Position numbers and translations under genes: made by a program | Assembly: GCA_965205795.1 (NCBI GenBank) | Contig: OZ242177.1 | Location: forward strand, 2,440,424 to 2,504,423 | Origin: Nitrospirales bacterium | GTDB taxonomy: Bacteria; Nitrospirota; Nitrospiria; Nitrospirales; UBA8639 | DNA: 64,000 bases | Direction of reading: 5' to 3' | The notes under the pieces: model-generated | What the model was told of the DNA's origin: nothing | The model's input: the letters and a program-made list of their open reading frames with translations, nothing else | The model's database searches: none | Shown: piece after piece, positions 3,001 to 28,300 of the stretch | How positions within the stretch are numbered: the first letter of the stretch is position 1 | Layout of the letters: every line of letters begins with the position of its first letter

Positions 3001-4344
3001 GAGGTCACCGCCACCGCCATGGTCACCGTCATGGTCACGGCGGAGAACGATGCGGCGACCTTTGGCGGCACCCACACCGGCACGGTCATTGAAAACGACA
3101 GTGCGAACAGTGTGGCCGCGGGCGTGTTGACCGTCAGAGACCCGGACACCCTCCACCGCTTCACGGCGCAGACCGACCTGGCCGGCACCTACGGCCGGTT
3201 CACCCTGTTCGCCGACGGGCGCTGGCGGTACGTCCTGGACAACGACGATCTGGACACCAACGCGCTGGCCGCGAGTGAGGAAGCCACCGACCGCTTCCCG
3301 GTGGCGACCGAGGACGGCACGACGTTCCAGCTGACGACCACGGATGGCCCGACGCCCACGGAAGTGAACGCGGTAGTCATCACCATCACCGGCTTCAATG
3401 ACCCGCCGACCGTCGACGCCGGGGCCGCGCAGTTTGTGCCGACCGGGTCGACGGTGACGCTGGCCGGCATCGTCAGCGACCCGGAGAGTAGCGCGGAGGC
3501 CCTGACCTATGCGTGGACGCAAACCGGCGCCCCCGCCGTCGACCTTGCCGGCGACGCCACCGCCACCGCCACCTTCCTCGCGCCCCCGGTCCCCGCGGAC
3601 ACGCCCCTGATGTTCACGCTGACCGTCACCGCGCCGGCCGCGCCAGGCGAGACAAGCGAGACAGGGGCGCAGCAGACGGTCATGGACACGGTGATCGTCA
3701 CGGTGCGCCCGTTCAGCGTCCCGGCGGTCTTTAGCGGCGAGCGCACCGGCGGCGTCACCGAAGACGCGCCCACGAACACCGCCACCGCCACGTTGACCGT
3801 GACAGACGCGGATGGCCCGAATCTTGCCCGGGCGCAGACCGACATCGCCGGCACCTATGGCCGCTTCAGCATCATCGACACCGGCGAGTGGATGTACACC
3901 CTGAACAATGCCGTTGACGCGCCGACCCAGGCGCTGGCGGCGAATCAACAGGTCACCGAGCGGTTCACGGTTCAGGCCGTTGACGGCACGCCGGATGCGG
4001 TGGTCATCACCGTCACCGGCGCCAACGACGCGCCGAGCGCGACCATTGACGCGCCGGCGCAGAGCGCCAACGAGGGTACCCTCGTGACCTTGAGTGGCCG
4101 CGGCCGCGACCCGGACATGCTCGACCGGCTGGCCTATCAGTGGACGCAGCGTGGCGGCACGGCCGAGACCCGCGTCACGCTGGACAACATCGAATCCCCC
4201 GACAACACGATGACCATGGTCAGCTTCACCGCGCCCGAGATCACCGCAGCCACGCCCCTGACCTTTGAGTTGACCGTCACCGACCCGACCGCCAGCGACC
4301 CGGCCACGGCCACGGCGCTGGTGACCGTCCACCCGGTTCCGGGC
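1..4344 (+). repeat. VCBS / PKD-like di-domain array (7 units, period ~0.60-0.65 kb; left edge cut by window)
   Basis: The VCBS motif ...YG.FTL...G.WTYTL.N......AL..G....D.F.......VTITVTGANDAPTA alternates with the PKD-like motif ...V.L.G.GTDPD.GD.L.Y.WTQ.GG..V.L....A.A.FTAP.....T.L.F.LTVTD. Y.WTQ landmarks lie at 401, 994, 1618, 2263, 2863, 3508 and 4134. Confidence 0.85.
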
Positions 4345-7300: not shown

Positions 7301-10300
7301 GCCTTGACACGTTCCAGATGCAGACGGACGTCCCCGGCACCTACGGCACATTCCGTGTGACGATGCAGGGCGCGTGGACCTACAGGCTGGACAATGCGCT
7401 CGCGGCCACCAATGCGCTGGCGGCGAACCAGTCCTCGGTGCAAGACCGCTTTGAGGTGCAGACCGCGGACGGCACCGCAGACGCGGTGGTCATCACCGTC
7501 CTCGGCGCCAATGACGGGCCGACCGCCATGGTCGTCGGCGACGACCGGAGCGTTAACGAGGGTGCCGCGGTCACGCTGACCGGCACCGGCACCGACCCGG
7601 ACACCGACGACGTGCTGACCTATCGGTGGGCGCAGACCGGTGGCACGCCCCGGATTGCGCTGACTGGCGCGAACACCAACAGCGTCAGCTTCACCGCGCC
7701 GCCGTTAGCCGCGGACGCGCCCTTTGTGTTCACGCTGACCGTCACCGACTCGGCGCTCGCCACCGCCACCGACACGGTGACCGTGACCATCCAGGCGGAT
7801 GATGACGCGGCGACCATCACCGGCGATCGCACCGGGGCGGTCACCGAAGACGCGGATACGAACACGGTCATCGGCCAGTTGACCGCGGACGACCCGGATG
7901 GCGACAACCGCTTCCGGCCCCAGCGCGCCCTCGGCACCGCCGGCCAGTACGGCACCTTCAGGCTGACCGCGACCGGGGTGTGGACCTACATGCTGGACAA
8001 CCGCGCGGACGTCACCAACGCCCTGGCCGAGGGGGCCAGCGTCACCGACACCTTCATGGTCGCCGCCAGCGACGGCACCTCGGACGCAGTGGTGATCACC
8101 GTCCTCGGCGCCAATGACGCGCCGACCGCCACGGCCGGCGCCTCGCGGACTGTGCCCGAAGCCGCGCAGGTGACCCTGGTGGCCACCGCGACGGACCCGG
8201 ATAGCGGGGATCTCCTGACCTATGCGTGGACGCAGCTCGCCGGCACGCCGGAGCAGATGCTGGACGGCGCCGACACCGCCAATGCCCGCTTCACCACGCC
8301 CCAGCTTGAGGACACCACCGCCTTCACATTCACGCTGACGGTCACCGACCGGGCGCGCGCCCAGGCCACCGACCGGGTCATCATCACCGTGGATGCGGAC
8401 AACGACGCGGCCACGATCACCGGCACCCCCACCGGCGCCGTCACCGAAGCCGGCATTGAAGCCGGCACCGAGACCGCAGGCGTGCCGACGACCACCGGCA
8501 CGTTGACCGTGACCGACCCGGATGGCGACGACCGCTTCCAGCCCCAGCCCGCCCCCGGCACCGCAGGCCGCTACGGCGCCTTGAGCCTGACCGAGAACGG
8601 GGTTTGGAGCTATACCCTGAGCAATGCGGATAGTGCCACCAACGCCCTGCTCGCGGACGCCATCGTCACCGACACCTTCCCGGTGGCCGCCAGTGACGGC
8701 ACCGAGGTGTTGGTGGCGATCACGGTCACCGGCGCCAATGACGCGCCGACCGCGAACGCCGGGGCGGATCAGGCCGACATTCCTGAAGGGCAACGGGTGT
8801 TCCTGTCTGGCAGCGGGAGCGACCCGGACACCGGCGATGCGGCGGCCCTGACGTATGTCTGGACGCAGACCGGCGGCACGCCCACCGTCACGTTCACCCC
8901 CTCCGGGCCGTCCAGAGTCGTCCGCTTCACCGCGCCGCAGTTGCTCGCAGGGACGACCCTGATGTTTGAGCTGACCGTGACCGACCCGCAGGGCGCCGTG
9001 GACCGTGATCAGGTGCAGGTCACCATTGAGGCGGACAATGACCCGGCGACCATCACTGGCCAGCGCACCGGAGCAGTCACCGAAGACGCGGAGCCCACCG
9101 TCACCGGCCAGCTGACCGTGACCGACCCGGATGGCGCCGACCGCTTTGCGGCGGTGGCGGATCCCGGCCTCGTCGGCATCTACGGCACCTTCACCCTGAC
9201 CGCCGAAGGCGCGTGGACCTACACCCTGGACAATGATGACCCGGACACCGATGCTCTGGCCGCGAATGCCCGCGTCACCGACACGTTCACCGTGCGGCCT
9301 GAGGACCCGGGTGACTCCGCCGAGGTCACCATCACCATCCTCGGCGCCAATGATCCGGCGGTCGCGATCACCGGCACGACCACCGGCGCCGTGACCGCCG
9401 TGCCCGCAGCCACGGCGCCCACCCTCGCCACCGGCACGCTGGTGGTGGATGATCCGGACGGCCCCGGCACCGTCCAGGCGCGGGAGACCCCCGGCGCCTA
9501 CGGCGTCTTCCGCGTGACCGCGCAAGGGGTCTGGACCTACACCCTGACCAACGCGGACCGGGACACCATCGCCCTGGCCGCGGGTGACACCGCGACCGAC
9601 GCGTTCACCGTGACCGCGGACGACGGCATCACGACGACCGTCACCATCACCGTCACCGGCGCGGATGACCCGGTGACGATCACCGGCACGACCACCGGCG
9701 CCGTGACCGAAGGCCGGGGGCCGTTCAGCGGCACATTGACCGCGACCGACCCGGACAGCCCGGCGTCCCCCGTCCTGTTCCAGGCATTGACCACCCCCGG
9801 CCTCTACGGCATCTTCAACGTGACCGCAGGCGGCGTCTGGCGCTACACGCTGGACAATGAGAATGCGGCCACCAACGCCCTGGCCGCGGACGCCACCGAG
9901 ACCGAACGTTTCACCGTGACCGCGGACGGCATCACGACGACCGTCACCATCACCGTCACCGGCGCCGATGACCCGTCCACCATCGGTGGTGATCTCACCG
10001 GCGCCGTCACCGACAACGCACCGACGACCACCGACAGCGGCACGCTGACCGCGATCGACCTGGACGAGATAGAGACCCCCATCGAATTCGTCCCCATCAC
10101 GTTCACGCTGCCGACGAGTGCCGGTGGCCCCTACGGCGGTGCCGGTGCCGGCATCTACGGCGGCCTGGAGCTGGCCGCGACCGGCGAGTGGACCTACACC
10201 CTGAACCTGGACGATGCGGACACCATCGCCCTGGCCGCGGGCGCCACCGCCACCGACGCGTTCACTGTCATGGCGACGAATGCCGGCGTTGACGATGCCG

Positions 10301-13300
10301 TGCTCACCATCACCATCACCGGCGCCGACGACCCGGTGGTCTTCAGCGGGTTCACCGGCAGTACGACAGAAGACGAGTTCATCGGCGGATTCAACGAGCT
10401 CAGCGGCTTCTTGAGTGCGACGGACCCGGACGCCCCCGGATTGCGCTACACCTTCCGCCTCGCGCCCGGCGACTTCCAGGGCACCTACGGCACCTTCACC
10501 CTCAACGCCGGTGGCCTCCCCCGCTGGCGCTACCGGCTGGACAATACTGACGCGGACACCAACGCCCTGGCCGCAGGTGCCACCGTCACCGACACGTTCA
10601 GCGTGATGGTCGCCGATGAAGACGGCAACGACATCACCGATGTGACGCCAGCCGTCACCATCACCGTCACCGGCGCCAATGACGCGCCGACCGCCGAGGC
10701 GGGCGACGACCAGACCGTGCCCCGGGGCGCCATGGTGGCGCTGATTGGCCGCGGCAGCGACCCGGACACCGGCGATGCGGCGATGCTGACCTATGCGTGG
10801 ACGCAGACCGCCGGCACGCCGACCGTCACGCTCACCCCCGGAGCGGGCGACACCACGGTCACCTTTATCGCGGACCCGGTCACCGCGGACACGACCGTGA
10901 CGTTCACGCTGACCGTGACTGACCGGCAGGGCGCCATGGACACCGACACCGTGACAGTCGCCATTGATGCGGGCAGCATGGCCTCCACCATCACCGGCGA
11001 CCTGACCGGCACCGTCACCGAAGACGCGGAGCCGAACACCGCCACCGGCATGCTGACCGCGACGGCTGGGGACAACACCGTGCGCAATTTCGTGGCACAG
11101 ACCGTGCCGGGCACCTACGGCACCTTCATGCTGACCGCGACCAATAGCTGGACCTACACGCTGGACAACACACCGGGCAGCGCCACCGACGCCCTGCCGA
11201 TGGACAGCGCACGCATTGAGCAATTCCCGGTGGCGGCCATCGACAGCAGCACGGCGCTGGTGACCATCACGGTCAACGGCGCCAATGACGCGCCGACCGC
11301 CGATGCCGGCGACGCCGTCAGCGTGAACGAAGGCGATCCGGTCACGCTGGACGGCAGCGGCTCCAGCGACCCGGATAGCGGTGAGGGAACGGCCCTGACC
11401 TATCAGTGGACGCCGGTTGCCGGCACGCCGACCGTCACGCTCACCGATGCCGAGACCGCCACGCCCCGTTTCACCGCGCCCGCAGTAGACGAAGACGCGA
11501 TACTGACGTTCATACTGACGGTCACCGACCCGCAGCGCGTCACGGACACCGCCACGGTGGCCGTCACCGTGCGTGCGCTGCCGGTCGTCACCCTGGTGCT
11601 GACCCCGCCCGCGATCACCCAGAGCGGCGGCGTGAGCACCGTCACGGCCAGGCTGGACCAGGCCTCGTCCGCGCCGACCACGGTGACCGTCAGTGCGGCC
11701 CCGGTCAGCCCGGCGGTCGAGGGTGATTACCGCTTGAGTGACCCGTCGGTGCTGACCATTGCCGCCGGGGCGACCAGCAGCACCGGAACCGTCACCATCA
11801 CTGCCGTGAATCGCGGCAGCACGATACCCCGGCAGGTGACGGTGTCGGCCGTGGCCGTCAACGCCAATGGCATCACGCAACCGGACTCCCAAACCCTGAG
11901 CATTGCCGCCGTGGGTGATGGTGATGATGACGGCCTGCGTTTCGCGGACAGGGCGGTGAATCTGTTCTATCCGCTGGGCGTGCCGATCACCGCCACGACA
12001 TTGCCGCGGGAGGCCACCGACGACGCCGGGGCGCTGGCCTACACCCTGAGCCATTTGCACCTGTCCTTGAGCGAGTTAGGGCTGGCCTTTAACCCGGCCA
12101 CCCGCACCCTGACCGGCACGCCGATCCTGGCCGGCGTCGGCCATGAAGAGGATGACGCGGATCAGTTCGGGTTTGAGTTTGGCTATACGGTGACCGACGA
12201 GGCCGGGCGCACGGCTGAGCTGGAAGTGTTCATCACCATCTGCGCAGTCGGTGCGGTGCCGGCCGGCACCACCGAGTGCGCCCCGCCAGCCTACGTGCCC
12301 CTGGCGTTTACCGCCACCGTGGAGGCGCAGAGCTATCCGGTCAACACGGCCATCTCCTCGCTGACCCTGCCGGATGCCACCGGCGGCACCGGCGCCAGCC
12401 CCCGCCTGACCTATGTCTTGTCCCCGCTGCCCGCCGGGCTGGCCTTTGACCCGGCCACCCGCATCCTGACCGGCACGCCGACTGACCCCGGCGTCACCGG
12501 GCTGACGTATGCCGTCACCGACGCTGCGAGCGACCGGAGCTTCGCGCAAGCCTTTACCGTGACAGTGACCGGGCCGACGCTGGGCAGTCAGGGCGATCTG
12601 ACCTACCCTGCGTCCATCGCGATCACCCCGGTGACCCTGCCATCAGCCACCGGCGGCGCCGCGCCGCTGGTCTACACCCTGACCGGGCCAAATGGCGAGT
12701 CGCTGGCGACCGCCGTGCCCGGGCTGGTCTTTGCCCCGGCCCCGGCCGACCGCATCCTGTCCGGCACGCCGACCGTGGCGGGCCTGACCACGCTGACCTA
12801 CACGGTCACCGACAGCGCCACCCCGCCGGCCACCGACGTACAGACCTTTACCGTGACGGTGACCGGGGCGACGCTGGCCCGGCCGGCCGACATCACCACT
12901 CCGCCCGGCACGCCGTTCACCAGCAGCCCGTTCCCGGAGCTTCTGAATGCTGCCGGGCCGATCACCTACGCCGTGACCCGGCCGAACGGCCTCCTGTTAC
13001 CCACCGGCCTGACCTTTACCCCGACCACCCGCGTGCTGTCCGGCCAGGTGGCCGTGGGCGGTGTGACCATCCCGTTGGAATACAGCGCCACCTTCGGGGG
13101 CGGCAATCTCCGGCAGCCGTTTAACTTGCAGGTGACCGGGCCGAGGTTGCCGGGCGTCGACAACCAGCTCTACCTGGTGAACGTGGCCATTGAACCGCTG
13201 ACGCTGCCGCTGTCCCCCGGCGGCGGCACCGGCGCGGTGGGCTACGCCCTGACCGGGATGAACGCCGGGCCGGGCGCCGCCAACCTGCCCGCCGGCCTGA

Positions 13301-16300
13301 CCTATACGGCGGCCACCCGCGTCCTGTCCGGCACGCCGACCGAAACCGGCACCACCATTTTGGCCTACACCGCCACCGACTCGGCCACGCCCCCGGCCGT
13401 CAGCACGCAGGTCTTTGGCGTCTCGGTGAACGCCATCCCGCTTGGGGATGGCCCGATTCTGCCGCTGATGATCCCGCTGACCTATACGCTCGACGAGCCG
13501 ATTCCGCCGACGACGCTGCCGATGGCCCTGGCGCAGAAAGCCGATAGCACCACTGTTGGGCCGTTGACGTACACCCTGACCGGGCCGGGCGGCGCCGCCC
13601 TGCCCGCCGGCCTGACCTTTACAGCGGCCACCCGCGCACTATCCGGCACCCCGACCGCCCTGGGCGTCACCCCGTTGACCTACACGGTCACCGACCTTGA
13701 CGATGACACCACCACCACGCGCATCTTCAACGTCGTGGTGATTGAGCCGGTGCCGATGCCGGGCGTAACGTTGCCCACGCCGGGCAATCAGCGCTATGTC
13801 CTTGACGAGGCGCTCACGCCTCCCGTGACCCTGCCGGCCTCCCCGGACTTCATCGGGACGCCCACCTACACCCTGACCGGGCCGGAAGGCGCGTTGCTGG
13901 GGACCGCCGTGCCGGGCCTCGTCTTTACCCCGGCCACCCGTGAGCTCTCCGGCACGCCGACCACCCTGGGCGTCACCCCGCTGACCTACACGGTCGCCGA
14001 CGCCGCTGGTGTCACCGGCGCCGTCAGTGTGACCTTCGACGTGGCGGTCGTCAGAGACGGCCCCCTGACCCTGCCCACTCCGGATGATCAGCGCTACGAG
14101 CTCAACCAGGCAATCACCCCGACGACCCTGCTGGCCGCCACCGACTTCACTGGCGCGGTGGTCCGCTACACCCTGACCGGGACGGACGGCACCCTGACCT
14201 TTGCCCTGCCCATCGGCCTGACCTTTAATCCGGTCGACCGCGTGCTGTCCGGCACGCCGAGGACCGGCTTCGACTTCGACTTCAGCTTCGTCAATACTCT
14301 GGCCTACACCGCCACCGACGAGAACGGCTCCGTCACGGAGAACTTTGACGTCACCATCACCGCGGTCGATGCGCCGGTCGCGACCGCGCCGGACAATCAG
14401 CGCTATACGGTCGGCCGGCTGATCACGCCCCTGACGCTGGAGTCTGGCCCGTCGAGTCCGGGGGTGACGACCTACACCCTGACCGGGCCGACCGCCGGGC
14501 CGGGCGACGCCGACCTGCCCGCCGGCCTGACCTTTACTCCGGCCACCCGTGTCCTGACCGGCACGCCGACCACCGTGGCCGACGCCGTCACGCTGACCTA
14601 CACGGTCACCGACACCGTCATCACCGACACGGCGACCTTTGACGTCACCATCACCCCGGAGACGGCGCCGACCATCACCGCCATTGCGTTGACCTCGGAC
14701 GCCGGCGACGGCGTCTATGCGCTTGGCGACGAGATTGAAGCGACCGTCACCTTCAGCGAGGCGGTCATCGTCACCGGCCAGCCGCGGCTGGCGCTGATCG
14801 TGGGCACGCAGACGCGCCAGGCGGTCTACGACAGTGGCCGCAGCACGGACACGACGCTGGTGTTCCGCTACACGGTGGCCGTCGGCGACCTTGACGATGA
14901 CGGCGTGAGCATCGGCATCAATGCGCTGACCCACACCACCGGCCCCGGCAGTGCGATTCTGGACGCGGCCGACGACACCGTCGACGCGCTGATCACGCAC
15001 AGTGTGACGGTGGCCGGCACCCCCGCGCATACCGTCGACGGCATCGCCCCGACGGTGAGCACGGCCACCATCAACGGCGCGGCCCTGATACTGACCTACA
15101 CCGAGACGCTTGACGACACCTCGGCGCCGGCGCCGGCAGACTACACGCTGACCCTGGAGTCGGGTGTTGCGCCGGTGGTGAGCGGTGTGGCCATCAACGG
15201 GGATACGGTGACGCTGACGCTGAACACGCCCGTGGTATTGAGCGACACAGTGATGCTGCTGACCTACACCGTCGGCGCCAACCCGGTGCAGGATGAGGCG
15301 GGCAACGATGCCGCCGGTTTCATCCGCTCAATGGTGCCTAACCAGACGCCGCCGCCAACGGCCAGTCTGGCCGCCCCGGCCAGCGCCACGCTGACGGAAG
15401 GGGGAGACACGACTACGACTACACTGGTGGTGAACCTGGATGCCGCAGCGCCGGTCGGCGGCGTGCAGGTGCAGTTGGACAGCCTGCAGACGGTGCCGTC
15501 CACCACGCCGCCCAACGTGACCTACGGGCTGGATTACGATGTGACGCTTCGGGTCACCACCGACCCCGACTCGACCTGCGCCAGCGCCGGTTTCAGTTTT
15601 GACGCCGCCGACCCGACCACGCTGATGTCCCGGCAGGTGGTGGTGCCGTTCCCCGCCGGCTGCACCAGCCAGACACTGACAGTGAGGGCGCTTGAAGACG
15701 TGGACGGACTGGACGAAACCCTGGTCTTCAGCCTGGCAATGCCGGCGGATGACGCCGGCTACACGGTCACGTCCGTGACCAACGAGGCCAGCCGCACCCT
15801 GACGGTCACCGACAATGAGCCGGTGGTGACGCTGCGTCCGCTGCGCGATCCGTCTCCGATGGTGAGCGTTGAAGATGTCGTCGCAGAGCAAAACAGGATC
15901 GCGGTCGACGCCCTTCTTCCGGGGTATGTTTCGGGGACCGTGACGGTCAATGTTATGGTCACCGGCGACATTGATAACGGGGATGTGACCCTGGAGAGCG
16001 GGACGGAAGCCACCCCGCTGCTGCAATTGAACACGCTGGTCATTAACGGGACGCGCACCCTGGACATCGGCGGCGCGCCGACGCCGGCGTCTGTGGAACA
16101 GATCTTTTCCGTCGTGCCCGATAACCTGGACGAGCCCGAAGAGACGGCGACCGTGATGCTGCTGCCGGGCAACGGCTACCGGTTGCCGGCCGCCGACCGC
16201 CGCCACAGCGTCAGGATACTGGACTCGCTGCGTGTGACCATCCCGAACACCGCCCCGCGCATCGCCGTTGAGGGAGGCGGGGAGGCCGCGGTGGCCAGGG

Positions 16301-19300
16301 TCACGCTGGAATTAAACCGGCCGATAAGGCCGGACCTGGCCGAGACCTCCGTCGTGGCGAATGTGAGTATCCGGCTGCCGACATCGAACCCGGAGTTTGC
16401 GGATAGTGAGTACGCCGTGGGCCTGGTCGAAAGCTCCACGGTGAAGTTCATCGGGCTTGACCCCGATCGCATCCCCCAGGTTGACGGTTTCTACACCGTG
16501 GAGTTCCCGACAGACGCAGGCAGTGTGCAAAGCGTCACGCTCACCATCACCGCGAATGAGGACGACAACGCCATTGACGAAGTGGTCACGCTCAGCCTGA
16601 TTGCGTTGCGTGTCAATATCCTCGGCCGCGCCTACACCACCACCCCGGCCCCGATGCCCGTGCTGATCACCCTGCAGGATAATGATGATGCCGGGGCGAC
16701 GCTGGCCGGCACCTTGACCGAAGACACCCTGAACGGCGCGACGGTGACGGTGACGCTGAACACCGAATACGAGCCGGAGACCGAGCTGACGGATGCCGAC
16801 TTCACGCTGACCACCACGAACGTGCCCGGGACGGTGACGGTGAGCGGTGTCAGCCGCGACAGCGCCACCGAGGCCACGTTGACGCTGACGTATGTCGGCG
16901 AGGACCTCACCGCCGACGGCACGTTGTCCGTCACGGTACTGGATTCCGGGCACACCGGCAGCGGCGATCTGATCACCAACAGCGTGCTGATCACGGCCAT
17001 CATTGACGACCTCACCGGCGCGGTTACGGAAGGCGGCGTCGCGGTTACGACCATTGACACCGACACCGGCCGGTTGTTCCTGCCCGGCGGTTTTGTGCCC
17101 CAGGCCGGCGACACCGACCGGGCCAACGGGCAGGGCGCCTACGGCAGCTTCACTCTGGCCGCCGCCGGGACGTGGACCTATACGCTGAATAACGACGACC
17201 CCGACACCAACGAGCTGGCCGCCGGCGTTACGATGACCGACATCTTCACCGCCGTCTCCGCCGCCGACGCCAGCGTGACGCAAGCTGTCACCATCACCGT
17301 CACCGGCGCCAATGATGCGCCCACAGCGAATGCCGGGTCGGACCAACCCGCCGTAACTGCCGGAGCCACCGTCACGCTGGACGGCAGCGGCAGCAGCGAC
17401 CCGGATACCGGTGATGCGATTGACACCTACACCTGGACGCAGCCCGGCGGCACGACAGTAACCTTGAGTGACAACAGCGCCATGCCGACCTTCACCGCGC
17501 CCGCGGTTGCCACTGACCTGACGTTTTCACTGATTGTCAACGACGGCAGTGTGGATTCCGCCGCCGACACCGTGACCATCACGGTGACCGACGCTGCTGG
17601 TGTGGGTGGCATCGTGCTGTTGCCGGCGAGTTTGACGGTCTCTGAGACCGGGAGCGCGTCTTACGATGTGTCGTTGTCAGTGGCGCCTTCGGGACGAGTG
17701 GATGTTGTCATAGCAGACGGAGCGGGTTCGGACGGATTGACATTTGACCCGACCGCACTGGTCTTTGATGCTGGCAATTGGAATGTTGCTCAGGCGGTCA
17801 CGGTAACGGCGGACCGTGGCGCTCAGTCGGGGAGTCGGACCCACACGGCAAGCGGCAGCGGCTACAGTGCCACGCAAGACTTGAGTGTCACGGTGCTGCC
17901 GCAGCCCGGACTTGTGCAGGACTTCACCGCCACTCCCAGACCTTTCGGTCGTGCGAGAGTCGTATTGAATTGGGCGGCGCCGGAAAATGCGGTTGCTGCT
18001 GCTGTCACCCAATACGAGCTGCAAAGGAGGGCAAGAAGTGCAACAGACTTTGTGCCTTTGGAGACACTCACAGTTGGTAGCACCACAACTCAATTCGTTC
18101 TCCCACCAGGGAATTCCGCCAGATCCTTTGAATTTCGTATAAGAGCATTGGCTGCGGGAGTGGTGGGTGAATGGGTGAGCTCTGACCCCAGTCCCGGCGC
18201 ATTGTTAAGCGTGAACACCCTCTTGGAGATAGACGAGGGTGGTACGGCGATCTATACGGTGGTATTGCAGACTAGGCCGACCGCTTCGGTAACAGTTGTG
18301 ATAAGGAGCACCGATGACGATGTGACGACCAATGTGCCGGAGACAGGCCTCACATTCACGGTGGCTAATTGGAATACTCCGCAAGAGGTGATTGTAACAG
18401 CGGCGCAGGATGATGATGCCTCTGATGATGTGGGTATTAGTCTCACTCACGATTTTCAGGGAGGCGGCTACGGAAGCGTTAGCGCGAGAGTGGATGTGGA
18501 TGTGGTGGACGATGACACTGCGCAATTGAGCGTCGTGGCGGCTCCGGTTACGGAGGGAGGCACTGCGACAGTAGAGGTACGTTTGGACAGAGCGGTTGCC
18601 GAAGGGTTCACGGTGAACTTTGCGACACAAGAAGGCGGCACTGCGACAGTTGTAGATGACTACACGGCGACATCGGGGACTCTGACCTTTGCGGGTTCTG
18701 CCGGCGAGGTTCAGACCTTCACGGTGGCAACGGTGCAGGATGAGATGGCTGAGTCCGATGAGACGGTGCAGGTTTCCTTGTCGGGATTGACCCCGTCTGA
18801 TCTGCCGATTGACCTTACCGGAGTAACAAATGTTGATGCGGTAACGATTACGGACGATGATGCTGCTGTGGACGGCGCCGGCATCGTGCTGTTGCCGGAG
18901 GATTTGACGGTATATGAGACCAGGAGCGCGTCGTACAATGTGTCGTTGTCAGAGGCGCCTTTGGGACCAGTGGCTGTTGCCATAGTTGCCAGAGCAGACG
19001 GAGCGGATTTGGGCGACTCATTGACATTGACCCCGCCCACACTGACCTTTAATGAGAGCACTTGGAATGTTGGTCAGGCGGTCACGGTAGCGGCGGCGGC
19101 TGGTATTTTGCCAGCAGACGGAAGTAGCAGTTTGACGCTGGATATCGTGCACAGGGCAAGCGGCGGCGGCTACAACAATGTTGAGGAAAGCTTGGAGTTA
19201 ACGGTGCGGCCGCAGCCCGGACGTGTGCAGACCTTCACAGCCGATCCTGCTGCTCGTGGTGGTCGTGTCATTTTGAGGTGGGAGGCGCCGGCCAATGCGG

Positions 19301-22300
19301 GTGTGGCGGCTGTAACCCACTACGAGCTGCAACGGAGGGCAAGAAGTGCAACAGACTTTGAGCCTTTGGAGACACTCACATCTGATAACACCGAAACGCA
19401 ATTCGTTCTCCCCCGAAGGACTTCCGTCACATCCTTTGAATTTCGTATCAGAGCATTGGCGGCGGGCGTGGAGGGTGAATGGGTGAGCTCTGACCCCAGT
19501 CCCGGCGCATTGTTAAGCGTGAACACCCTCCTGGAGATAGCAGAGGGTGGCACGGCGACCTATACGGTGGTCTTGCAGACTGTGCCGACCGCTTCGGTCA
19601 CAGTTGAGATAAGGAGCAACAATGGCGATGTGACGGCGACAGGCCTCACATTCACGGTGGACAATTGGGATATGCCGCAAGCGGTGATTGTCACCGCGGC
19701 GCAGGATGCTGATGCCATTGATGATGTGGGGATTAGTCTCACGCACGATTTTGAGGGAGGCGGCTACCGAAGCGTGAGCGCGAGAGTGGATGTGAGTGTG
19801 GTGGACGATGACACTGCGCAATTGAGCGTCGTGGCGGCTCCGGTTGCGGAGGGAGGAACTGCGACAGTAGCGGTACGTTTGGACAGAGCGGTTGCCGCAG
19901 GGTTCACGGTGAACTTTGCGACACAAGAAGGCGGCACTGCGACAGTTGTAGATGACTACACGGCGACATCGGGGACTCTGACCTTTGCGGGTTCTGCCGG
20001 CGAGGTTCAGACCTTCACGGTGGCCACGGTGCAGGATGAGATTGCTGAGACCGCTGAGACGGTGCAGGTTTCCTTGTCGGGATTGACCCCGTCTGATCTG
20101 CCGATTGACATTACCGGAGTAACAAATGTTGATGTGGTAACGATTACGGACGATGACCCGGCCTTCAGCACGACGACCGTTGCCGCCCAGACCTACACCG
20201 TGGGCATGGACATCGGCAGCGTCATCCTGCCGACCGCCACCGGCGGCAACGGCGCATTGACCTATACCCTTGCCCCGCTGCCGGACGGTCTGATGCTGAC
20301 CGACAACATGCTGTCCGGCATACCGGTGACGCCGCAGGCTGCGACCAACCTCGCCTACACCGTGACGGACGGCGACGGCAACACCGACACCATTGACTTC
20401 ACCATCACCATCAATGCCATCACCATCACCGGCGACACGACCGGCATGGTCACAGAAGGCGGCGTTGAGGTTGAGACCATTGACACCGCCACTGGCCGGT
20501 TGGTCAATCCCGCCGGCGACTTTGTGTCCCAGGCCGGCGCCACCGACCGGGCCAACGGGCAGGGCGCCTACGGCCGCTTCACCCTGGCCACCGGCGGCGC
20601 GTGGACCTATACGCTGGATAACGAGGACGACGACACCAACGCGCTGCCCGTCGGCGCCACGGTGACCGACATCTTTACCGCCGTCTCCCGCGCGAACGCG
20701 GGCGTGACGCAAGCCGTCACCATCACCGTCACCGGCGCCAATGACGCGCCGACCGCCGACGCGGGCGACGCCCGGACCGTGCCCCAGGGCTCCACGGTGG
20801 CGCTGATTGGCAGCGGCAGCGACCCGGACACCGGCGACCAGGCGGAGCTGACCTATGCGTGGACACAGACCGGTGGCACGCCGACCGTCACCTTCGTCCC
20901 CGGGATGGACGACACCACGGTCAATTTCGCCGCGCCTGCTGTTGGCGCGAACACGCCCCTGACGTTCACGCTGACCGTGACAGATCGGCAGACTGCCGCG
21001 GACACCGCCACCGTGACGGTCACCATTAATGCGGGCAGCACGGCCTCCGACATCACCGGCGACATTTTCGGCCTCGTCACCGAAGACGCGGAGCCGAACA
21101 CCGCCACCGGCGCGCTGACCGTGACGGCCGGCGGCACCGTTGGCGAGTTCCAGGCGCAGCCGATGCAGCCGACGGATCCGCCGGTGGTCGGCGTCTACGG
21201 CGCCTTCACGCTGGCCGACACCGGCGCGTGGACCTACACGCTGAACAACGAGAACATCGTCATCAACGCCCTGCCCCTGGGCTCCGAGGAGCTCCAGGAG
21301 ACCTTCCGGGTGGTGGCCGTCGACAGCACCCCGGCGACCGTGACCATCTTTATCAACGGCGCCAATGACCTCCCCACCGTCGAGGTTGAGCCGACGCAGA
21401 CCGTTGTCGAAGAGACCATTGTGACGCTGACCGGCACCGGCGATGACGTGGATACCGGCGACCTGTTGCGCTATCAGTGGACACAGATTGATTTTGAGCT
21501 TGCCGACCCCACGGCTGTCACGCGGCAGGTCACGCTGACCAACGCGGACACCGCCACCGCCACCTTCACCGCGCCCAATTTCCTCGCGGACACGCCCCTG
21601 ACGTTCACGCTGACCATCGCCGATGTGCATAGCGCCGGCGTCACCGCCACGGTGATCGTCACCGTGGACGCGGACGACGACCCGGTACTCATCGGCGGCG
21701 AGCAGACCGGGAGCGTCACCGAAGACGGGGCGGTGTTGGCGCGGGGCGAGTTGACGATCCGTGATCCGGATGGCCACGACCGCTTCCAGGCCCAGACGGA
21801 CGTGGCTGGCGTCTATGGCACGCTGGCGAGCCTGACCGCCACCGGCGTGTGGGTCTACGCGCTGAACAACAATGACGAAGTCGTTCAGAACCTGCGGGCG
21901 ACCGACGTGCGCACCGAGACCTTCACCGTGCAGGCCGAGGACAACACCCCCGTGATCCTCACCATCACCGTCACCGGCGCCAATGACGCGCCGACCGCCA
22001 CGGGCCGGTTCCGGAGCGACGCGCTGATCATTGACAGCAGCGTCATTGGGGGGAGTGCGGTGAGTCTGGTCGGCACGGGCACCGACCGGGATACCGGCGA
22101 GCAGGAAGCGTTGCGCTATGCATGGACGCAAGTCAGCGGCCAGCCCGACGTCACGCTGACCAACGCGGATATGGCCACCGCCACCTTCACCGCGCCGACG
22201 TTACCCGCGGAGACGACGCTGGTGTTTGCGTTGACCGTCACCGACGGGCAAGAGGCCACCGCCATCGCGCCGGTGCGTGTGCTCGTGCGGGCGGCGGACA

Positions 22301-25300
22301 ACATCCCGGCGGTCTTTACCGGGGGGACGCGCGGCCGCGTCACCGAAGACGGGGAGCCGACCGCCACCGCCACGCTGACCGTGACTGACGCGGATGGCTC
22401 TGATACTACCGTCCAGGCGCAGGCCGACCTTGTCGGCGCCTATGGCAGGTTCACGCTGAACGCCGCGACCAGCGTGTGGAGCTACACACTGAATAACGAC
22501 ACGGACGCCGTCCAGGGCCTGGCCGCGAACGAGGCCGTGCGTGAACGGTTTGCCGTGCGGGCCGCGGACGGCACGCGGGGCGAGGTCGTCATCACCGTCA
22601 ACGGCGCCAACGACGCGCCCGAAGTGTCGATTGAAGGGCCGGCAGCGGCCGTGCCCGAAGTCGATCCCGTTGGCACCCCCAGCATCGTGACCCTGACCGG
22701 CACCGGCACCGACCCGGATCGGCAAGACCGGTTGCGCTATCAGTGGACGCCGCCCGCCGGCATCCCGACCAGTGGGCTTCTCCCCTCCGCGACCTCGGCC
22801 CGCATCACCTTTGCCGTGCCGGATTTGCCCGGAGACACGGCCCTGGCGTTCACGCTGACCGTCACCGACCCGTCGGAGGTCACCGCCACCGCCATGGTCA
22901 CCGTCATGGTCACGGCGGAGAACGATGCGGCGACCTTTGGCGGCACCCACACCGGCACGGTCATTGAAAACGACAGTGCGAACAGTGTGGCCGCGGGCGT
23001 GTTGACCGTCAGAGACCCGGACACCCTCCACCGCTTCACGGCGCAGACCGACCTGGCCGGCACCTACGGCCGGTTCACCCTGTTCGCCGACGGGCGCTGG
23101 CGGTACGTCCTGGACAACGACGATCTGGACACCAACGCGCTGGCCGCGAGTGAGGAAGCCACCGACCGCTTCCCGGTGGCGACCGAGGACGGCACGACGT
23201 TCCAGCTGACGACCACGGATGGCCCGACGCCCACGGAAGTGAACGCGGTAGTCATCACCATCACCGGCTTCAATGACCCGCCGACCGTCGACGCCGGGGC
23301 CGCGCAGTTTGTGCCGACCGGGTCGACGGTGACGCTGGCCGGCATCGTCAGCGACCCGGAGAGTAGTGCGGAGGCCCTGACCTATGCGTGGACGCAAACC
23401 GGCGCTCCCGCCGTCGACCTTGCTGGCGCCGCCACCGCGACCGCCACCTTCCTCGCGCCCCCGGTCCCCGCGGACACGCCCCTGATGTTCACGCTGACCG
23501 TCACCGCGCCGGCCGCGCCAGGCGAGACAAGTGAGACAGGGGCGCAGCAGACGGTCATGGACACGGTGATCGTCACGGTGCGCCCGTTCAGCGTCCCGGC
23601 GGTCTTTAGCGGCGAGCGCACCGGCGGCGTCACCGAAGACGCGCCCACGAACACCGCCACCGCCACGTTGACCGTGACAGACGCGGATGGCCCGAATCTT
23701 GCCCGGGCGCAGACCGACATCGCCGGCACCTATGGCCGCTTCAGCATCGTCGACACCGGCGAGTGGATGTACACCCTGAACAATGCCGTTGACGCGCCGA
23801 CCCAGGCGCTGGCGGCGAATCAACAGGTCACCGAGCGGTTCACCGTCCAGGCCGTTGACGGCACGCCGGATGCGGTGGTCATCACCGTCACCGGCGCCAA
23901 CGACGCGCCGAGCGCGACCATTGACGCGCCGGCGCAGAGCGCCAACGAGGGTACCCTCGTGACCCTGAGTGGCCGCGGCCGCGACCCGGACACGCTCGAC
24001 CGGCTGACCTATGCGTGGACGCAGCGTGGCGGCACGGCCGAGACCCGCGTCACGCTGGACAACATCGAATCCCCCGACAACACGATGACCATGGTCAGCT
24101 TCACCGCGCCCGAGATCACCGCAGCCACGCCCCTGACCTTTGAGTTGACCGTCACCGACCCGACCGCCACCGACCCGGCCACGGCCACGGCGCTGGTCAC
24201 CGTCAACCCGGTTCCGGGCATCAGCAGCCTGGCGTTGACCTCAAATGCCGGTGATGGCGTCTACGCGATTGGCGACGAGATTGAAGCGACCGTCACCTTT
24301 GACGCGGCGGTCATCGTCACCGGCCAGCCGCGGCTGGCGCTGGGTGTGGGCCCGGCGACGCGGCGCCAGGCGGTGGCGGTCCCCACCGACAGCAGCAGCA
24401 GGACGACGCTGGCCTTCCGCTACACGGTTCGCGCCGGCGACCTTGACGAGGACGGCGTGAGTATTGGCGCCAATGCGCTGAGCCACACCGCCGACAGCGC
24501 GATACGAGCCGCGGCCGATGCTGCCGCCGACGCGCTGATCACGCATACCGTGACGCTGGCCGCGAGCACCGCCCATCGCGTAGACGGCATTGCCCCGGCG
24601 GTGGACCGTGTCACCCTCAGCACCACCGGCCCGTACATTGCGGGCGACGCGATTGCGTTGACGGCAACCTTCATCGACGCCGTCACGGTAATCGGCACAC
24701 CGCAGATCGCGCTGACGGTAGGCCCGGCGACGCGCCAGGCGGTCTACGCCAGCGCCCGCAGCACCCCCACGGCGCTGGTCTTCAGCTACACCGTCGTCGC
24801 CGGCGACCACGATGCCGATGGGGTTGACGTCGCACCCAATGCCCTGGCGGTCAACAGCGGCCTCATCGGGGACGCCGCCGGCAACGATGCGGTGCTTGCC
24901 CACGATGCCATTGCCGCGGTCAACGCCAATCGAGTGGACACCGCCGTGCCGACAGTCAGCACGGCAACAATTAATGGCAGGACACTGACACTGACCTACG
25001 ATGAGGCACTTGACGCCCGCTCGGTACCGGCACCGTCAGCCTACACGCTGACGCTGGCGTCGGGCACTGCCCCGACGGTGGCCAATGGCGGCGTGGCCAT
25101 CAGCGGGCAGACCGTGACGCTCACGCTGCGCACCGCCGTGGTATCGACCGATGCGGGCGTGACGCTGACCTACACTGCCGGGCCGACTCCGCTGCTGGAT
25201 CTGGCCGGCAACCAGGCCGACAACTTCAGTGACCAGGCGGTGACCAACACCACGCCCGATCTGGTTCCGGATTTCGAAGCGCAGACCATTGCCGCCCAGA

Positions 25301-28300
25301 CCTACACCGTGGGCACCGACGTTGGCACCGTCACATTGCCGGCAGCCACCGGCGGCAACGGCGAATTGGCCTATACCCTCAGTCCGGCCCTGCCCAGCGG
25401 CCTGGTCTATACCGCCGCCGCGCGCACCATCAGCGGCACCCCGGCACAAGGCACCGAGCAGGCCGCCACCCCCTACACCTACACCGTGGGCGACCGCGAC
25501 GGCAGCAGTGTGGCCCTTGGCTTCACCCTCCGCATCACCCCGGCGGTCATGACCGGCGCGGTGACGGAAGACGACCCCGCCGCCACCACCGCGAGCGGCC
25601 GGTTGACCCTGCCCGGCGGCTTTGCTCCCCAGACCGACGCGGTGGGCGCCTACGGCACCTTTGCTCTGGCTGACACCGGCGCCTGGACCTACACGCTGGA
25701 CAACAACGATGTCGACACCGACGCGCTGGCCGCCGGCGACACGATGACCGATGTCTTGACCGCAGTCTCCACCGCCGACAGCACGGTGACGCGCCAGGTC
25801 ACCATCACCGTCACCGGCGCCGATGACCCGGCGGAGATCAGCGGCACGACCACCGGCGGCGTCACCGAAAACGATGCCACCACCACCGCCAGCGGCATGC
25901 TGACAATCATTGACCCGGACAGTGCCACCACCTTCACGTCGCTTGACGAAGCATCCGGCACCTACGGCGCCTTCAGGCTGGCCGCGAGCGGCGCGTGGAC
26001 CTACACCCTGGACAACAGGGATGTGGACACCAACGCGCTGGCCGTGGACAGCGAGGGCACCGACGTGTTCACCGTGGTGACGAGCGACGCCACCACGGCA
26101 CTCGTGACCCTCACCATCACCGGCGCCAACGACGCGCCGACCGCCGCGGCCGGCGTCGACCAGACCGTCACCGAAGGCGACCAGGTCGCGCTGAGCGGCA
26201 CGGGCACCGACCCGGATACCGGGGATCTCCTGACCTATGCGTGGACGCAGACCGGCGACACAGCCGAGCCCGCAGTCGCGCTGACCAATGCCAACACCGC
26301 CCGCGCCACCTTCACTGCGCCGCAATTACCCGCGCCCGTGACGCTGACGTTCGTGCTGACCGTCACCGACCCGCAGACCGCTTTCCACACCGACACGGTG
26401 CTGGTCACCGTGAATGCGCAGAACGCCCCGGCCGCCATCAGCGGGATGTTCACCGGCAGCATCACCGAAAACGCGGCCCCGAACACGGTCACCGGCATGC
26501 TGACGGTCATGGATGAGGATGGCGACGACGACTTCAGCGCCGGGGTGATCTCCAGCATCTCCGACCCCGACCCCGCCCCGCTGGCCGACACCGGCGCCGG
26601 GTCGGTCTCCGGCGTCTACGGCAGCTTCACGCTGGCCGTCACCGGCGCGTGGACCTATACGTTGGACAACGGCAACTCCAACACCGACGGGCTGATTGAG
26701 GACGCCACCATCACCGAGACGTTCCGGGTACAGACGGCCGACGGCACCGCGGAGACGGTCGTGCTCACCGTCACCGGCGTCAATGACGCGCCGACCGCCA
26801 TTGCCGGCGCCGCGCGCAACGTGTCCGAAGCCAGCCAGGTAACCCTGACCGGTCGCGGCGAAGACCCGGATGCCGGCGACACCCTGACGTATGCGTGGAC
26901 GCAGGTCGGCGGCACCCCCACGGTCACCCTCGCCGCCGCCGCCACCACCCGCGCCAGCTTCATCACGCCGCAGTTGACCGCGTCGACCGCCCTGGTGTTT
27001 GCGCTGACCGTGACCGACTCGTTGGGGGCCACGGGCATCGACACCGTGGTGCTCACCGTCCAGGCCGACAACGACCCGGCGGTGGTCACCGGCGTGCGCA
27101 CCGGCATCGTCACCGAAAACGCGGCCCCGGACGAGAGCGCCGCCACCGGCCAGCTGACCGCGACCGATCCGGACAGCCTTGACACGTTCCAGATGCAGAC
27201 GGACATCCCCGGCACCTACGGCACGTTCCGTGTGACGATGCAGGGCGCGTGGACCTACAGGCTGGACAATGCGCTCGCGGCCACCAATGCGCTGGCAGCG
27301 AACCGGCCCTCGGTGCAAGACCGCTTTGAGGTGCAGACCGCGGACGGCACCGCAGACGCGGTGGTCATCACCGTCCTCGGCGCCAATGACGGGCCGACCG
27401 CCATGGTCGTCGGCGACGACCAGGACGTTAACGAGGGTGCCGCGGTCACGCTGACCGGCACCGGCACCGACCCGGACACCGACGACGTGCTGACCTATCG
27501 GTGGGCGCAGACCGGTGGCACGCCCCGGATTGCGCTGACTGGCGCGAACACCGCCAGCGTCAGCTTCACCGCGCCGCCGTTAGCCGCGGACGCGCCCTTT
27601 GTGTTCACGCTGACCGTCACCGACTCGGCGCTCGCCACCGCCACCGACACGGTGACCGTGACCATCCGGGCGGATGATGACGCGGCGACCATCACCGGCG
27701 ATCTCACCGGGGCGGTCACCGAAGACGCGGATACGGACACCGTCATCGGCCAGTTGACCGCGGACGACCCGGATGGCGACAACCGCTTCCGGCCCCAGCG
27801 CGCCCTCGGCACCGCCGGCCAGTACGGCACCTTCAGGCTGACCGCGACCGGGGTGTGGACCTACATGCTGGACAACCGCGCGGACGTCACCAACGCCCTG
27901 GCCGAGGGGGCCAGCGTCACCGACACCTTCATGGTCGCCGCCAGCGACGGCACCTCGGACGCAGTGGTGATCACCGTCCTCGGCGCCAATGACGCGCCGA
28001 CCGCCACGGCTGGCGCGTCGCGGACTGTGCCCGAAGCCGCGCAGGTGACCCTGGTGGCCACCGCGACGGACCCGGATAGCGGGGATCTCCTGACCTATGC
28101 GTGGACGCAGCTCGCCGGCACGCCGGAGCAGATGCTGGACGGCGCCGACACCGCCAATGCCCGCTTCACCACGCCCCAGCTTGAGGACACCACCGCCTTC
28201 ACATTCACGCTGACGGTCACCGACCGGGCGCGCGCCCAGGCCACCGACCGGGTCATCATCACCGTGGATGCGGACAACGACGCGGCCACGATCACCGGCA

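Follow-up and report, generated by a model that had tools for sequence, protein, structure and literature searches.

A late-spreading, compositionally distinct domain cassette in two giant autotransporter genes

Introduction

Genes can become mosaic by sub-genic recombination, as in the penicillin-binding-protein genes of Streptococcus pneumoniae and Neisseria. The cassette described here resembles these genes in being an in-frame block with sharp breakpoints, whose divergence, composition and history differ from those of its flanks. Unlike in the penicillin-binding-protein genes, it comprises a whole set of structural domains, is multiplied about 15-fold across two paralogues, and no donor species was found for it. 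A second comparison is offered by the concerted evolution and gene conversion in the repeats of giant adhesins (LapA/RTX-type, Bap and SiiE-like), with which the locus shares a patchwork similarity and tracts that are far closer to each other than their flanks are. The unit propagated here differs from those repeats in that it is compositionally marked, so that GC3 suffices to follow its spread.

Compositional genomic islands and the amelioration model reportedly go back to Lawrence and Ochman in 1997, and according to this model the composition is expected to decay towards that of the recipient over time. The cassette shares with such islands a patchy taxonomic distribution and possibly an atypical codon usage, but it is intragenic and lacks borders with integrase, tRNA or direct repeats; furthermore, the local recipient sequence, i.e. 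the bulk of the giant gene, has a composition that departs strongly from the genome mean, and no amelioration signal is detectable. Finally, a length-dependent codon bias is said to have been attributed to translational accuracy or processivity by Eyre-Walker in 1996. In the host genome the GC3/C3 bias is likewise stronger in longer ORFs and increases within the giant ORF, but here the ribosomal-protein genes do not share it, and the trend is confounded by all giants belonging to one protein class. The locus is a case of a known process and involves no new mechanism.

Results

The window, by which we mean the whole 64-kb stretch of DNA analyzed (1..64000, + strand), proved in an open-frame scan to be the interior of a single ORF of 41,539 codons (genome 2390216-2514832). 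The encoded protein starts with a signal peptide (N-terminus MLKRLITLLLLLSVLAPASASAQ), continues with Ig-like repeats over thousands of residues and ends with a C-terminal autotransporter beta-domain, PF03797 being matched in the last 1400 aa with 36.2 bits (cut-off 26). The combination that marks type Va autotransporters, an N-terminal signal peptide and a C-terminal PF03797, is hence present. The gene of the window (g1) has a giant autotransporter paralogue (g2), and the two together carry 15 copies of the cassette.

A low-GC block had been reported at 17591-20160 in a first-pass annotation of this DNA. The underlying G+C counts of single 60-nt lines (44, 37, 31 and 31 of 60) are exact and the block is real, but its GC is 0.574 (~57%) and not ~52%. 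GC3 amounts to 0.593 within the block and to 0.880 in the remainder of the frame; 2570-nt windows of the bulk (n = 167) average 0.881 (sd 0.014, minimum 0.836), the island lying about 20 sd lower. The shift in GC3 is clear at all three places where it had been proposed (17.6-20.2, 37.4-38.1 and 49.9-50.5 kb), with GC3 values of 0.631 for 37444-38052 and 0.616 for 49855-50463. It is nearly confined to the third position, where mainly C3 drops from 0.537 in the bulk to 0.257 in the island and G3 is constant at 0.34-0.35. The codons formerly listed as typical of the block are indeed enriched according to their RSCU (island vs bulk), e.g. Arg AGA 1.83 vs 0.18 and AGG 1.42 vs 0.50, TTG 2.93 vs 0.84, GTT 0.83 vs 0.21, GCT 0.82 vs 0.11 and ACA 1.04 vs 0.12, and the reading frame passes unbroken through the island, again as claimed. 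Both edges are sharp (~17605 and ~20150) and coincide with domain borders, the right one being located within the end of copy f (…VVTITDDD / PAFSTTTV…).

The island consists of a cassette of four beta-sandwich domains that is present twice in tandem, each copy being composed of an NWN/LapA-like Ig domain (N1), an FN3 domain, a second NWN domain (N2) and a Calx-beta domain (Table 1). The two short FN3-NWN versions that had been noticed further downstream were confirmed, their homology starting 6 nt earlier than noted. For all 15 copies and all three length variants, the limits of low GC3/C3 are identical to the limits of homology among the copies, and past the breakpoint the same frame returns to a GC3 of ~0.88.

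Table 1 Positions of the cassette copies and of the domains of copy e in the window.
Feature	Position	Strand	Remarks
Copy e, full form, 429 codons	17590..18876	+	GC3 ~0.55-0.6, C3 ~0.2-0.3
Copy e, N1 (NWN-type Ig)	~17608-17904	+	
Copy e, FN3	~17905-18198	+	
Copy e, N2 (NWN-type Ig)	~18199-18519	+	
Copy e, Calx-beta	~18520-18876	+	PF03160, 43.9 bits (cut-off 27), cassette residues 322-424; above the Pfam gathering threshold
Copy f, tandem second full copy	18877..20160	+	84% nt / 78% aa identity to copy e; same low GC3
Copy g, FN3-N2 core only	37438..38052	+	GC3 0.63; directly continuous with the end of the PKD-like domain in front of it (…DTVTIITMRPLPGLV…)
Copy h, FN3-N2 core only	49849..50463	+	99% identical to copy g; flanks of g and h only 76-88% identical

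With respect to the other domains, fn3 (PF00041) was matched in copy f with 39.1 bits (cut-off 25) in a 1600-aa scan; copy e alone gave no match at E<=1, and a six-frame search of the genome yielded 24.1 bits. The NWN domains score below the Pfam gathering threshold of the LapA domain PF20579 (13.9 bits, cut-off 27), which is present on many of their database homologues. In the AF2 model of copy e (mean pLDDT 73) all four domains are predicted as beta-sandwiches, the NWN domains having an Ig-like fold at pLDDT 80-95 and the FN3 region a pLDDT of only 50-70, and a Foldseek search with this model returned only generic tandem Ig/FN3 proteins. The borders of the cassettes are in-frame domain junctions within the single ORF and have nothing in common but the domain-end motif (I/L)TV-R/L-P-x-PG; no mobility signatures (integrase, tRNA, direct repeats) were found at them. 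An embedded non-coding element was considered and rejected (sigma-70-like sites 0 vs 1.0 expected, no terminator excess). No Rfam match at E<=0.1 was obtained in 16-22 kb, and 17.6-19.5 kb is free of long ORFs in other frames.

All nine copies inside g1 are in frame, diverge by 1-16% in their core and occupy three different contexts, and g2 holds three further diverged copies besides copies m, n and o. The latter may be assembly duplicates, given that the final ~10.5 kb of the contig, whose ends fall within g2, matches window 11.1-21.6 kb with 100% identity; the end-to-start junction is moreover 1 nt out of frame. These irregularities would also suit an origin of the low-GC block in a chimeric assembly or in a wrong join with DNA of a different organism from the sample. 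Considering the nine in-frame g1 copies with their divergence and varied contexts, the three diverged copies in g2 and the independent contigs of another assembly that contain the same PKD-to-cassette junction (see below), we hold such an artefact to be extremely improbable.

The synonymous divergence between the copies is 2-20x below that of their flanks, dS for the same copy pairs being 0.01-0.18 in the cassette and 0.14-0.79 in the flanks. Copies that comprise only FN3-N2 and reside in differing repeat contexts have core dS values of 0.10-0.18 (0.014 for g-h) with flank values of 0.26-0.79 upstream and 0.14-0.55 downstream (0.32 and 0.14 for g-h). Core dS is mostly <=0.18 and at most 0.30. 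For comparison, the g1/g2 pairs a-j and d-l served as rate control: their core dS (0.035 and 0.028) is not lower than their flank dS (0.013-0.026 and 0.000). Since these pairs display no core deficit, the low core dS does not originate from a reduced mutation rate or from synonymous constraint and, therefore, the cassette must have spread or have been homogenised later than its surroundings. A dS well under that of both flanks, combined with the rate control, is the pattern of a gene-conversion or recent-duplication tract, and among the repeat units similarity is distributed as a patchwork in which some tracts are far more alike than their flanks. The propagation that had been proposed is thus supported by 15 copies in two paralogous giant genes, and the younger age, which had been listed as another option, by the low dS and by the distribution among congeners described below.

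We also considered that low GC and rare codons are required, e.g. to make translation pause while the passenger folds or is secreted or to provide an mRNA/DNA signal, and are therefore kept in every copy. All 15 copies and those of an uncultured relative do remain low-GC and, unlike the bulk, the cassette has no excess of AT->GC synonymous changes. On the other hand, NWN and Calx-beta domains recur in the same protein at a GC3 of ~0.88, so that low GC is a matter of descent rather than of the type of domain. Substitutions do accumulate at the synonymous sites of the cassette (dS up to 0.30), in the control pairs as fast as at those of the flanks, and the lack of promoter-like sites, terminator excess and Rfam matches mentioned above speaks against a nucleic acid signal. 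We consider selection improbable, and the earlier suggestion of slow-translating codons received no positive support. Polarisation of the synonymous changes by tree parsimony yielded a W->S : S->W ratio of 16:25 for the island (implied GC3* ~0.5) compared to u/v of 2.5-3.5 for the bulk, and no drift of the cassette towards the bulk composition was seen. If real, this contrast points to a locally different regime and not to a simple lack of time; for singletons only, a conservative version of the test, it is not significant (p = 0.1-0.2), and the parsimony test, being vulnerable to rooting errors and recombination, was not relied upon.

A different picture arises when the island is compared with the host genome, which has 59.5% GC and whose ordinary ORFs have a median GC3 of 0.685 (sd 0.09). 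The island (GC3 ~0.59) corresponds to about the 15th percentile of native ORFs and is within the native range. Consequently, the compositional outlier is the bulk of the giant genes (GC3 86-88%) and not the cassette. The first-pass annotation was correct about the shift relative to the gene bulk, but its frame of reference was incomplete. Along PC1 of a codon-usage PCA the island is found at the 84-89th percentile, inside the native cloud, and the bulk at the 0.3rd, every giant ORF being extreme. The signs of the third-position skews of the island (G3>C3, T3>A3) are those of native leading-strand genes and the opposite of those of the bulk. Furthermore, longer ORFs have a higher GC3 (rho 0.26, medians increasing from 0.66 to 0.83), and within g1 it climbs along the gene (rho 0.32), the unique N-terminal parts being lower.

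These observations would all fit a cassette that derives from, or had its place in, DNA of ordinary host composition and was lately taken up by the giant gene. The bulk would then be the true anomaly, driven to C-ending codons by a length- or repeat-dependent force (selection for accurate or processive translation, or GC-biased gene conversion) to which the cassette was exposed only briefly. We judge such a native origin to be rather unlikely. The native codon model describes the cassette better than that of the bulk does, the gain being 0.19-0.30 nat per codon. Scored with the native model, its per-codon likelihood ranks at the 1-7th percentile among native genes, and its codon choice (Arg AGA/AGG/CGT, Leu TTG, Ala GCG >> GCC) is unlike theirs. 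No native FN3 paralogue was found outside the cassettes, the weak fn3 match at 822954 being unrelated at the sensitivity used. In addition, the bias of the bulk is not the usual expression-linked one because ribosomal-protein and tuf genes are not C3-rich. Repeat number as a cause of GC3, as the gBGC idea would have it, was rejected, the correlation being weak (rho 0.25) and the 15-copy cassette a clear outlier. The bulk being the outlier raises a testable question as to the force behind the extreme use of C-ending codons in very long repeat genes. The dinucleotide signatures of the island (delta* 0.165) and of the bulk (0.18) are both far from native DNA, which probably stems from amino-acid make-up and renders the signature uninformative.

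Within the host genome the cassette FN3 is matched 15 times, and in 37 further congeneric species, most of which are represented by closed genomes, no match exceeds 37% identity; the related NWN + Calx-beta arrays that were read in two genomes (G014 and G016) are all high-GC3. Two ENA metagenome contigs of an uncultured relative (ERZ25069326) contain the cassette with 86-91% nt identity as a low-GC patch (0.50-0.58), next to flanks that align at only ~45-71%, and repeat the PKD-to-cassette junction of the host. The identity of 86-91% could be ordinary orthologous divergence beside hyper-variable flanks. One of these contigs carries extra low-GC Calx/NWN modules absent from the host genome, which suggests a larger low-GC layer. 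The distribution among close relatives is patchy, one uncultured relative having the cassette, whose FN3 is without a match above that level in the 37 congeners.

Apart from these two contigs, no close homologue or donor was detected in GTDB genomes, a 5.8-billion-protein set or JGI metagenomes, and no matches to the cassette occurred in viral contigs (IMG/VR) or plasmids (PLSDB). Per domain, the best matches from outside have 30-53% identity and are scattered over many phyla. In an exhaustive HMMER search with the FN3-N2 core, whose matches were dominated by giant proteins with NWN domains by the dozen, FN3-NWN pairs were seen to exist elsewhere, the closest at ~40-46% identity. N2 is ~50% identical to the bulk NWN modules of the host genome and about equally so to those of unrelated phyla and, because of this similar distance, was not recently derived from the local bulk. 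Thus, searching with the cassette for its closest relatives and their taxonomy brought out no donor taxon, and of the acquisition from a lower-GC donor with subsequent propagation, as put forward in the first-pass annotation, the propagation stands and the import is plausible but unproven.

Discussion

With modest confidence, we consider it probable that the island is a younger cassette, specific to the species lineage, which entered after the bulk had diversified, brought along a codon usage from elsewhere in composition and was then copied. According to this scenario, the bulk repeat modules would have diversified first, and the cassette would then have entered the giant autotransporter adhesin gene with the codon usage of a different compositional background. 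We infer an external origin, the favoured source being a piece of the adhesin gene of another bacterium that was imported by recombination, i.e. sub-genic horizontal transfer. Subsequently, the cassette would have been copied to at least 9 sites in g1 and 3-6 sites in g2, through the duplication of larger units as well as through gene conversion of repeats that were already in place and had diverged, with N1 and/or Calx-beta being lost from some copies at the conserved domain-end motif. Its low GC would persist owing to too little time for the synonymous sites to approach the extreme C-ending usage of the bulk.

Beyond this, the cassette might be part of an exchangeable pool of low-GC adhesin domains that moves between host-associated strains or species by sub-genic recombination into giant adhesin genes, a broader proposal that we regard as unlikely. 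If it held true, the contrast between cassette and bulk would represent a built-in clock for the pace at which an unusually strong, length-dependent force on codon usage remodels incoming sequence in genes of 10^4-10^5 codons.

The history of the cassette makes the growth and remodelling of a 125-kb gene directly visible, since a late-arriving, compositionally tagged cassette that is spread and homogenised across two giant paralogues leaves a readable trace in GC3. GC3 profiling can offer a cheap way to stratify the ages of modules in giant adhesins. In a scan of the 14 ORFs of at least 3000 aa, the internal low-GC3 runs of at least 600 nt outside the N-terminal regions were cassette copies, with a single exception, a 600-nt run in a 3,265-aa ORF (1528717-1538511).

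Composition and anatomy of the low-GC block

The base counts behind the low-GC island proposed in the first-pass annotation were exact, and the compositional shift that it had described at 17.6-20.2, 37.4-38.1 and 49.9-50.5 kb is correct and highly significant. The long block (GC 0.574) has a GC3 of 0.593 and the two short ones (copies g and h, see below) 0.63 and 0.62, vs 0.880 in the rest of the frame (the bulk), where windows of island size averaged 0.881 ± 0.014 and never fell below 0.836. The shift is mostly confined to the third position: C3 falls from 0.537 in the bulk to 0.257 in the island, A3 and T3 rise and G3 stays the same (0.342 vs 0.346), and every codon listed in the annotation is enriched. 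At 30-codon resolution the composition switches within one or two windows, and both edges are domain borders (slash), …TVTDAAGVGG/IVLLPASL… on the left and …VVTITDDD/PAFSTT… on the right.

The island consists of two tandem copies (84% nucleotide and 78% amino acid identity) of a 429-codon unit, the cassette, with the domain order NWN-type Ig (N1), FN3, NWN-type Ig (N2) and Calx-beta. Pfam recognised Calx-beta (43.9 bits) and, in copy f only, fn3 (39.1 bits), while the LapA-domain match to N2 was sub-threshold. An AF2 model from 13 sequences predicts four beta-sandwich domains with a mean pLDDT of 73 (N1 and N2 80-95, FN3 50-70), for which Foldseek returned generic tandem Ig/FN3 proteins only. 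BLAST and codon alignment located 15 copies (a-o), all within the host gene g1 and its giant paralog g2; elsewhere in the genome BLAST found none at the nucleotide level. Copies c, e, f, k, m and n have the full form, d, i, l and o are N1-FN3-N2, and a, b, g, h and j comprise the FN3-N2 core. In core-only copies FN3 comes immediately after a PKD-like domain. Long and short forms share the upstream joining motif (I/L)TV-R/L-P-x-PG, which is common to the ends of the PKD-like domain and N1; a deletion or recombination event at this microhomology is a plausible route for the loss of N1.

Coordinates of the features discussed
Feature	Reference	Position
Low-GC block	window	17591-20160
Composition switches	window	~17605; ~20150
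Cassette copy e	window	17590-18876
Cassette copy f	window	18877-20160
Cassette copy g	window	37438-38052
Cassette copy h	window	49849-50463
Upstream joining motif	window	17460-17600; 37400-37465; 49810-49875
Bulk repeat modules (examples)	window	36566-37440; 38100-38750; 15361-17400
Leucine-rich-repeat modules	window-equivalent	-30707; -10007
Identical to the last ~10.5 kb of g2	window	11.1-21.6 kb
Counterpart of the first 5 kb of the contig	window-equivalent	65.7-70.7 kb
g1, stop to stop	genome	2390216-2514832
Contig-end segments (g2)	genome	2582573-2608990; 1-5000
3,265-aa ORF	genome	1528717-1538511
Extra low-GC modules	L032 (ctg66338)	4800-5950

Host gene and assembly

Frame +1 is open throughout the 64 kb of the window (G000:C1:2440424-2504423), which lies on a single contig of 2.609 Mb. 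The complete frame, g1, has 41,539 codons; its protein starts with a signal peptide (MLKRLITLLLLLSVLAPASASAQ) and carries an autotransporter beta-domain (PF03797, 36.2 bits vs cut-off 26) in the last 1400 residues. Long repeats at 80-98% identity make up g1 as a mosaic, and the nearest named matches outside the genome, including an Arenicellales MAG and the sponge symbiont AqS3, show 30-38% amino acid identity. The genome holds ~19 ORFs above 1500 aa, among them ones of 13,322, 13,941 and 17,241 aa; g2 exceeds 27,556 aa and runs off the contig end.

The contig ends inside g2, whose last ~10.5 kb are 100% identical to part of the window, and the first 5 kb of the contig are 99.96% identical to g1 (see table). 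The end-to-start junction falls within a PKD-like domain, 1 nt out of frame. Circularisation may have been imperfect or a repeat collapsed, gene conversion may have taken place very recently, or g2 may be broken; m, n and o are possibly copies duplicated by the assembly. The cassette copies are not independent samples. An assembly artefact can be ruled out for those that lie in g1.

Cassette, bulk and native genes

Genome-wide statistics were obtained with our own greedy ORF set as gene calls. In this genome (GC 59.5%) ~1565 ordinary ORFs have a median GC3 of 0.685 (5th-95th percentile 0.47-0.78) and third positions of A.134, C.33, G.345 and T.19. The giant ORFs, all at GC3 0.74-0.85, occupy the far C-ending extreme of a codon-usage PCA, on which the window bulk lies at the 0.3rd percentile and the cassette copies at the 84-89th, within the native cloud. 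The usual expression-linked bias does not account for the bulk, since C3 is only 0.2-0.28 in ribosomal-protein, rpoBC and tuf genes. Judged from native genes, g1 lies on the leading strand; the skew signs G3>C3 and T3>A3 are common to the cassette and native leading-strand genes and opposite in the bulk.

Even so, the cassette differs from typical native DNA. Scored with the native model, it reaches a per-codon likelihood in the 1-7th percentile, owing to its use of Ala GCG >> GCC, Leu TTG and Arg AGA/AGG/CGT and to flat Thr and Val usage, and the native model beats the bulk model on it by 0.19-0.30 nat per codon. In the 14 ORFs of at least 3000 aa, N-terminal regions aside, the internal low-GC3 runs of at least 600 nt are cassette copies and a single 600-nt run in the 3,265-aa ORF. 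Two short leucine-rich-repeat modules of g1 outside the window (19-25 copies) lie at GC3 0.62-0.67, so that the FN3 cassette, though the lowest and longest, is not the sole below-bulk class.

Extreme C-ending usage was observed in every ORF above 2000 aa on either strand (GC3 0.74-0.85, C3 ~0.5 vs native 0.68 and 0.33) and also in related NWN arrays of the Arenicellales MAG, AqS3 and two comparison genomes (G014, G016). Longer ORFs have a higher GC3 (rho 0.26 below 1200 aa; medians from 0.66 up to 0.83). GC3 also increases along g1 (rho 0.32) and correlates weakly with repeat copy number (rho 0.25), a trend from which the 15-copy cassette departs strongly. These trends are compatible with a force on the bulk that is linked to length or to repeats, without identifying it; candidate causes for the bias of the giant ORFs are gBGC and selection for accuracy or processivity.

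Descent, age and spread

When the 15 copies are aligned, low GC3 and C3 start and stop exactly at the limits of cassette homology. Where homology ends after N2, the next Calx-beta-sized stretch has a GC3 of ~0.88 and ~16% identity to the cassette Calx-beta. In the bulk and in other giants, the NWN and Calx-beta domains are GC3-rich and share 42-53% identity with their cassette counterparts, so the amino acid sequence does not force low GC. The composition thus follows descent, not domain type. Selection for slow-translating codons, also considered in the annotation, found no positive support.

Synonymous divergence was compared for FN3-N2-only copies in homologous but diverged contexts, with flanks of 200 codons on each side. 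The core dS was 0.10-0.18 (0.014 for g-h), vs 0.32-0.79 upstream and 0.14-0.55 downstream. A lower synonymous rate in the cassette is excluded by the g1/g2 duplicate pairs a-j and d-l, in which core dS (0.035 and 0.028) is not below flank dS (0.013-0.026 and 0.000). Given these equal rates, the cassette copies coalesce later than their surroundings; together with the 15 copies in g1 and g2 and the overall dS of 0.014-0.18 vs 0.14-0.79, this supports the propagation and younger age suggested earlier. The high-identity tract of g-h runs ~240 nt into the GC-rich flank, the pattern expected for gene conversion.

For the cassette dN/dS was 0.35-0.77, and for the bulk flanks ~0.7-0.95. Bulk repeat modules compared with paralogous copies likewise gave ~0.7-0.95, with amino acid identity lower than their synonymous differences suggest; the evolution of the Ig-like bulk repeats is nearly neutral or shaped by diversifying selection.

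Parsimony at synonymous third positions yielded W->S : S->W = 16:25 for the core of the cassette, implying an equilibrium GC3 of ~0.5, and u/v of 2.8-4.3 (implied GC3 0.73-0.81) in three bulk families. The cassette ratio would be very unlikely under the bulk ratio, but rooting and recombination can affect this test; restricted to singletons, it showed the same trend (u/v ~1.0 vs 2.5) with p 0.1-0.2. We conclude only that the cassette bears no sign of amelioration towards the bulk.

Distribution and origin

In 37 congeneric species the cassette FN3 had no match above 37% identity, IMG/VR and PLSDB held no cassette relatives, and JGI metagenomes offered nothing closer than ~50%-identical NWN domains. 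Two protein fragments of an uncultured relative, from the ENA assembly ERZ25069326, are 76-82% identical to N2 and Calx-beta. In their contigs (2x long-read assemblies, frameshifted) the cassette shows 86-91% nucleotide identity and is again a low-GC patch (0.50-0.58), and the adjoining sequence, including the syntenic PKD-like domain, reaches only ~45-71% alignment identity.

The island is best read as a young cassette, specific to the lineage and separate in compositional origin, that spread by duplication and gene conversion; its source may be either another organism or DNA of native composition. It is a clear new case of processes already known, namely mosaic genes and the concerted evolution of adhesin repeats, and not a new kind of element. 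In the relative, contig ctg66338 carries a further ~1.1 kb of low-GC Calx-beta-like/NWN modules (GC 0.50-0.56) without a nucleotide-level counterpart here, and this longer island is a hint that the pool of low-GC modules is larger.
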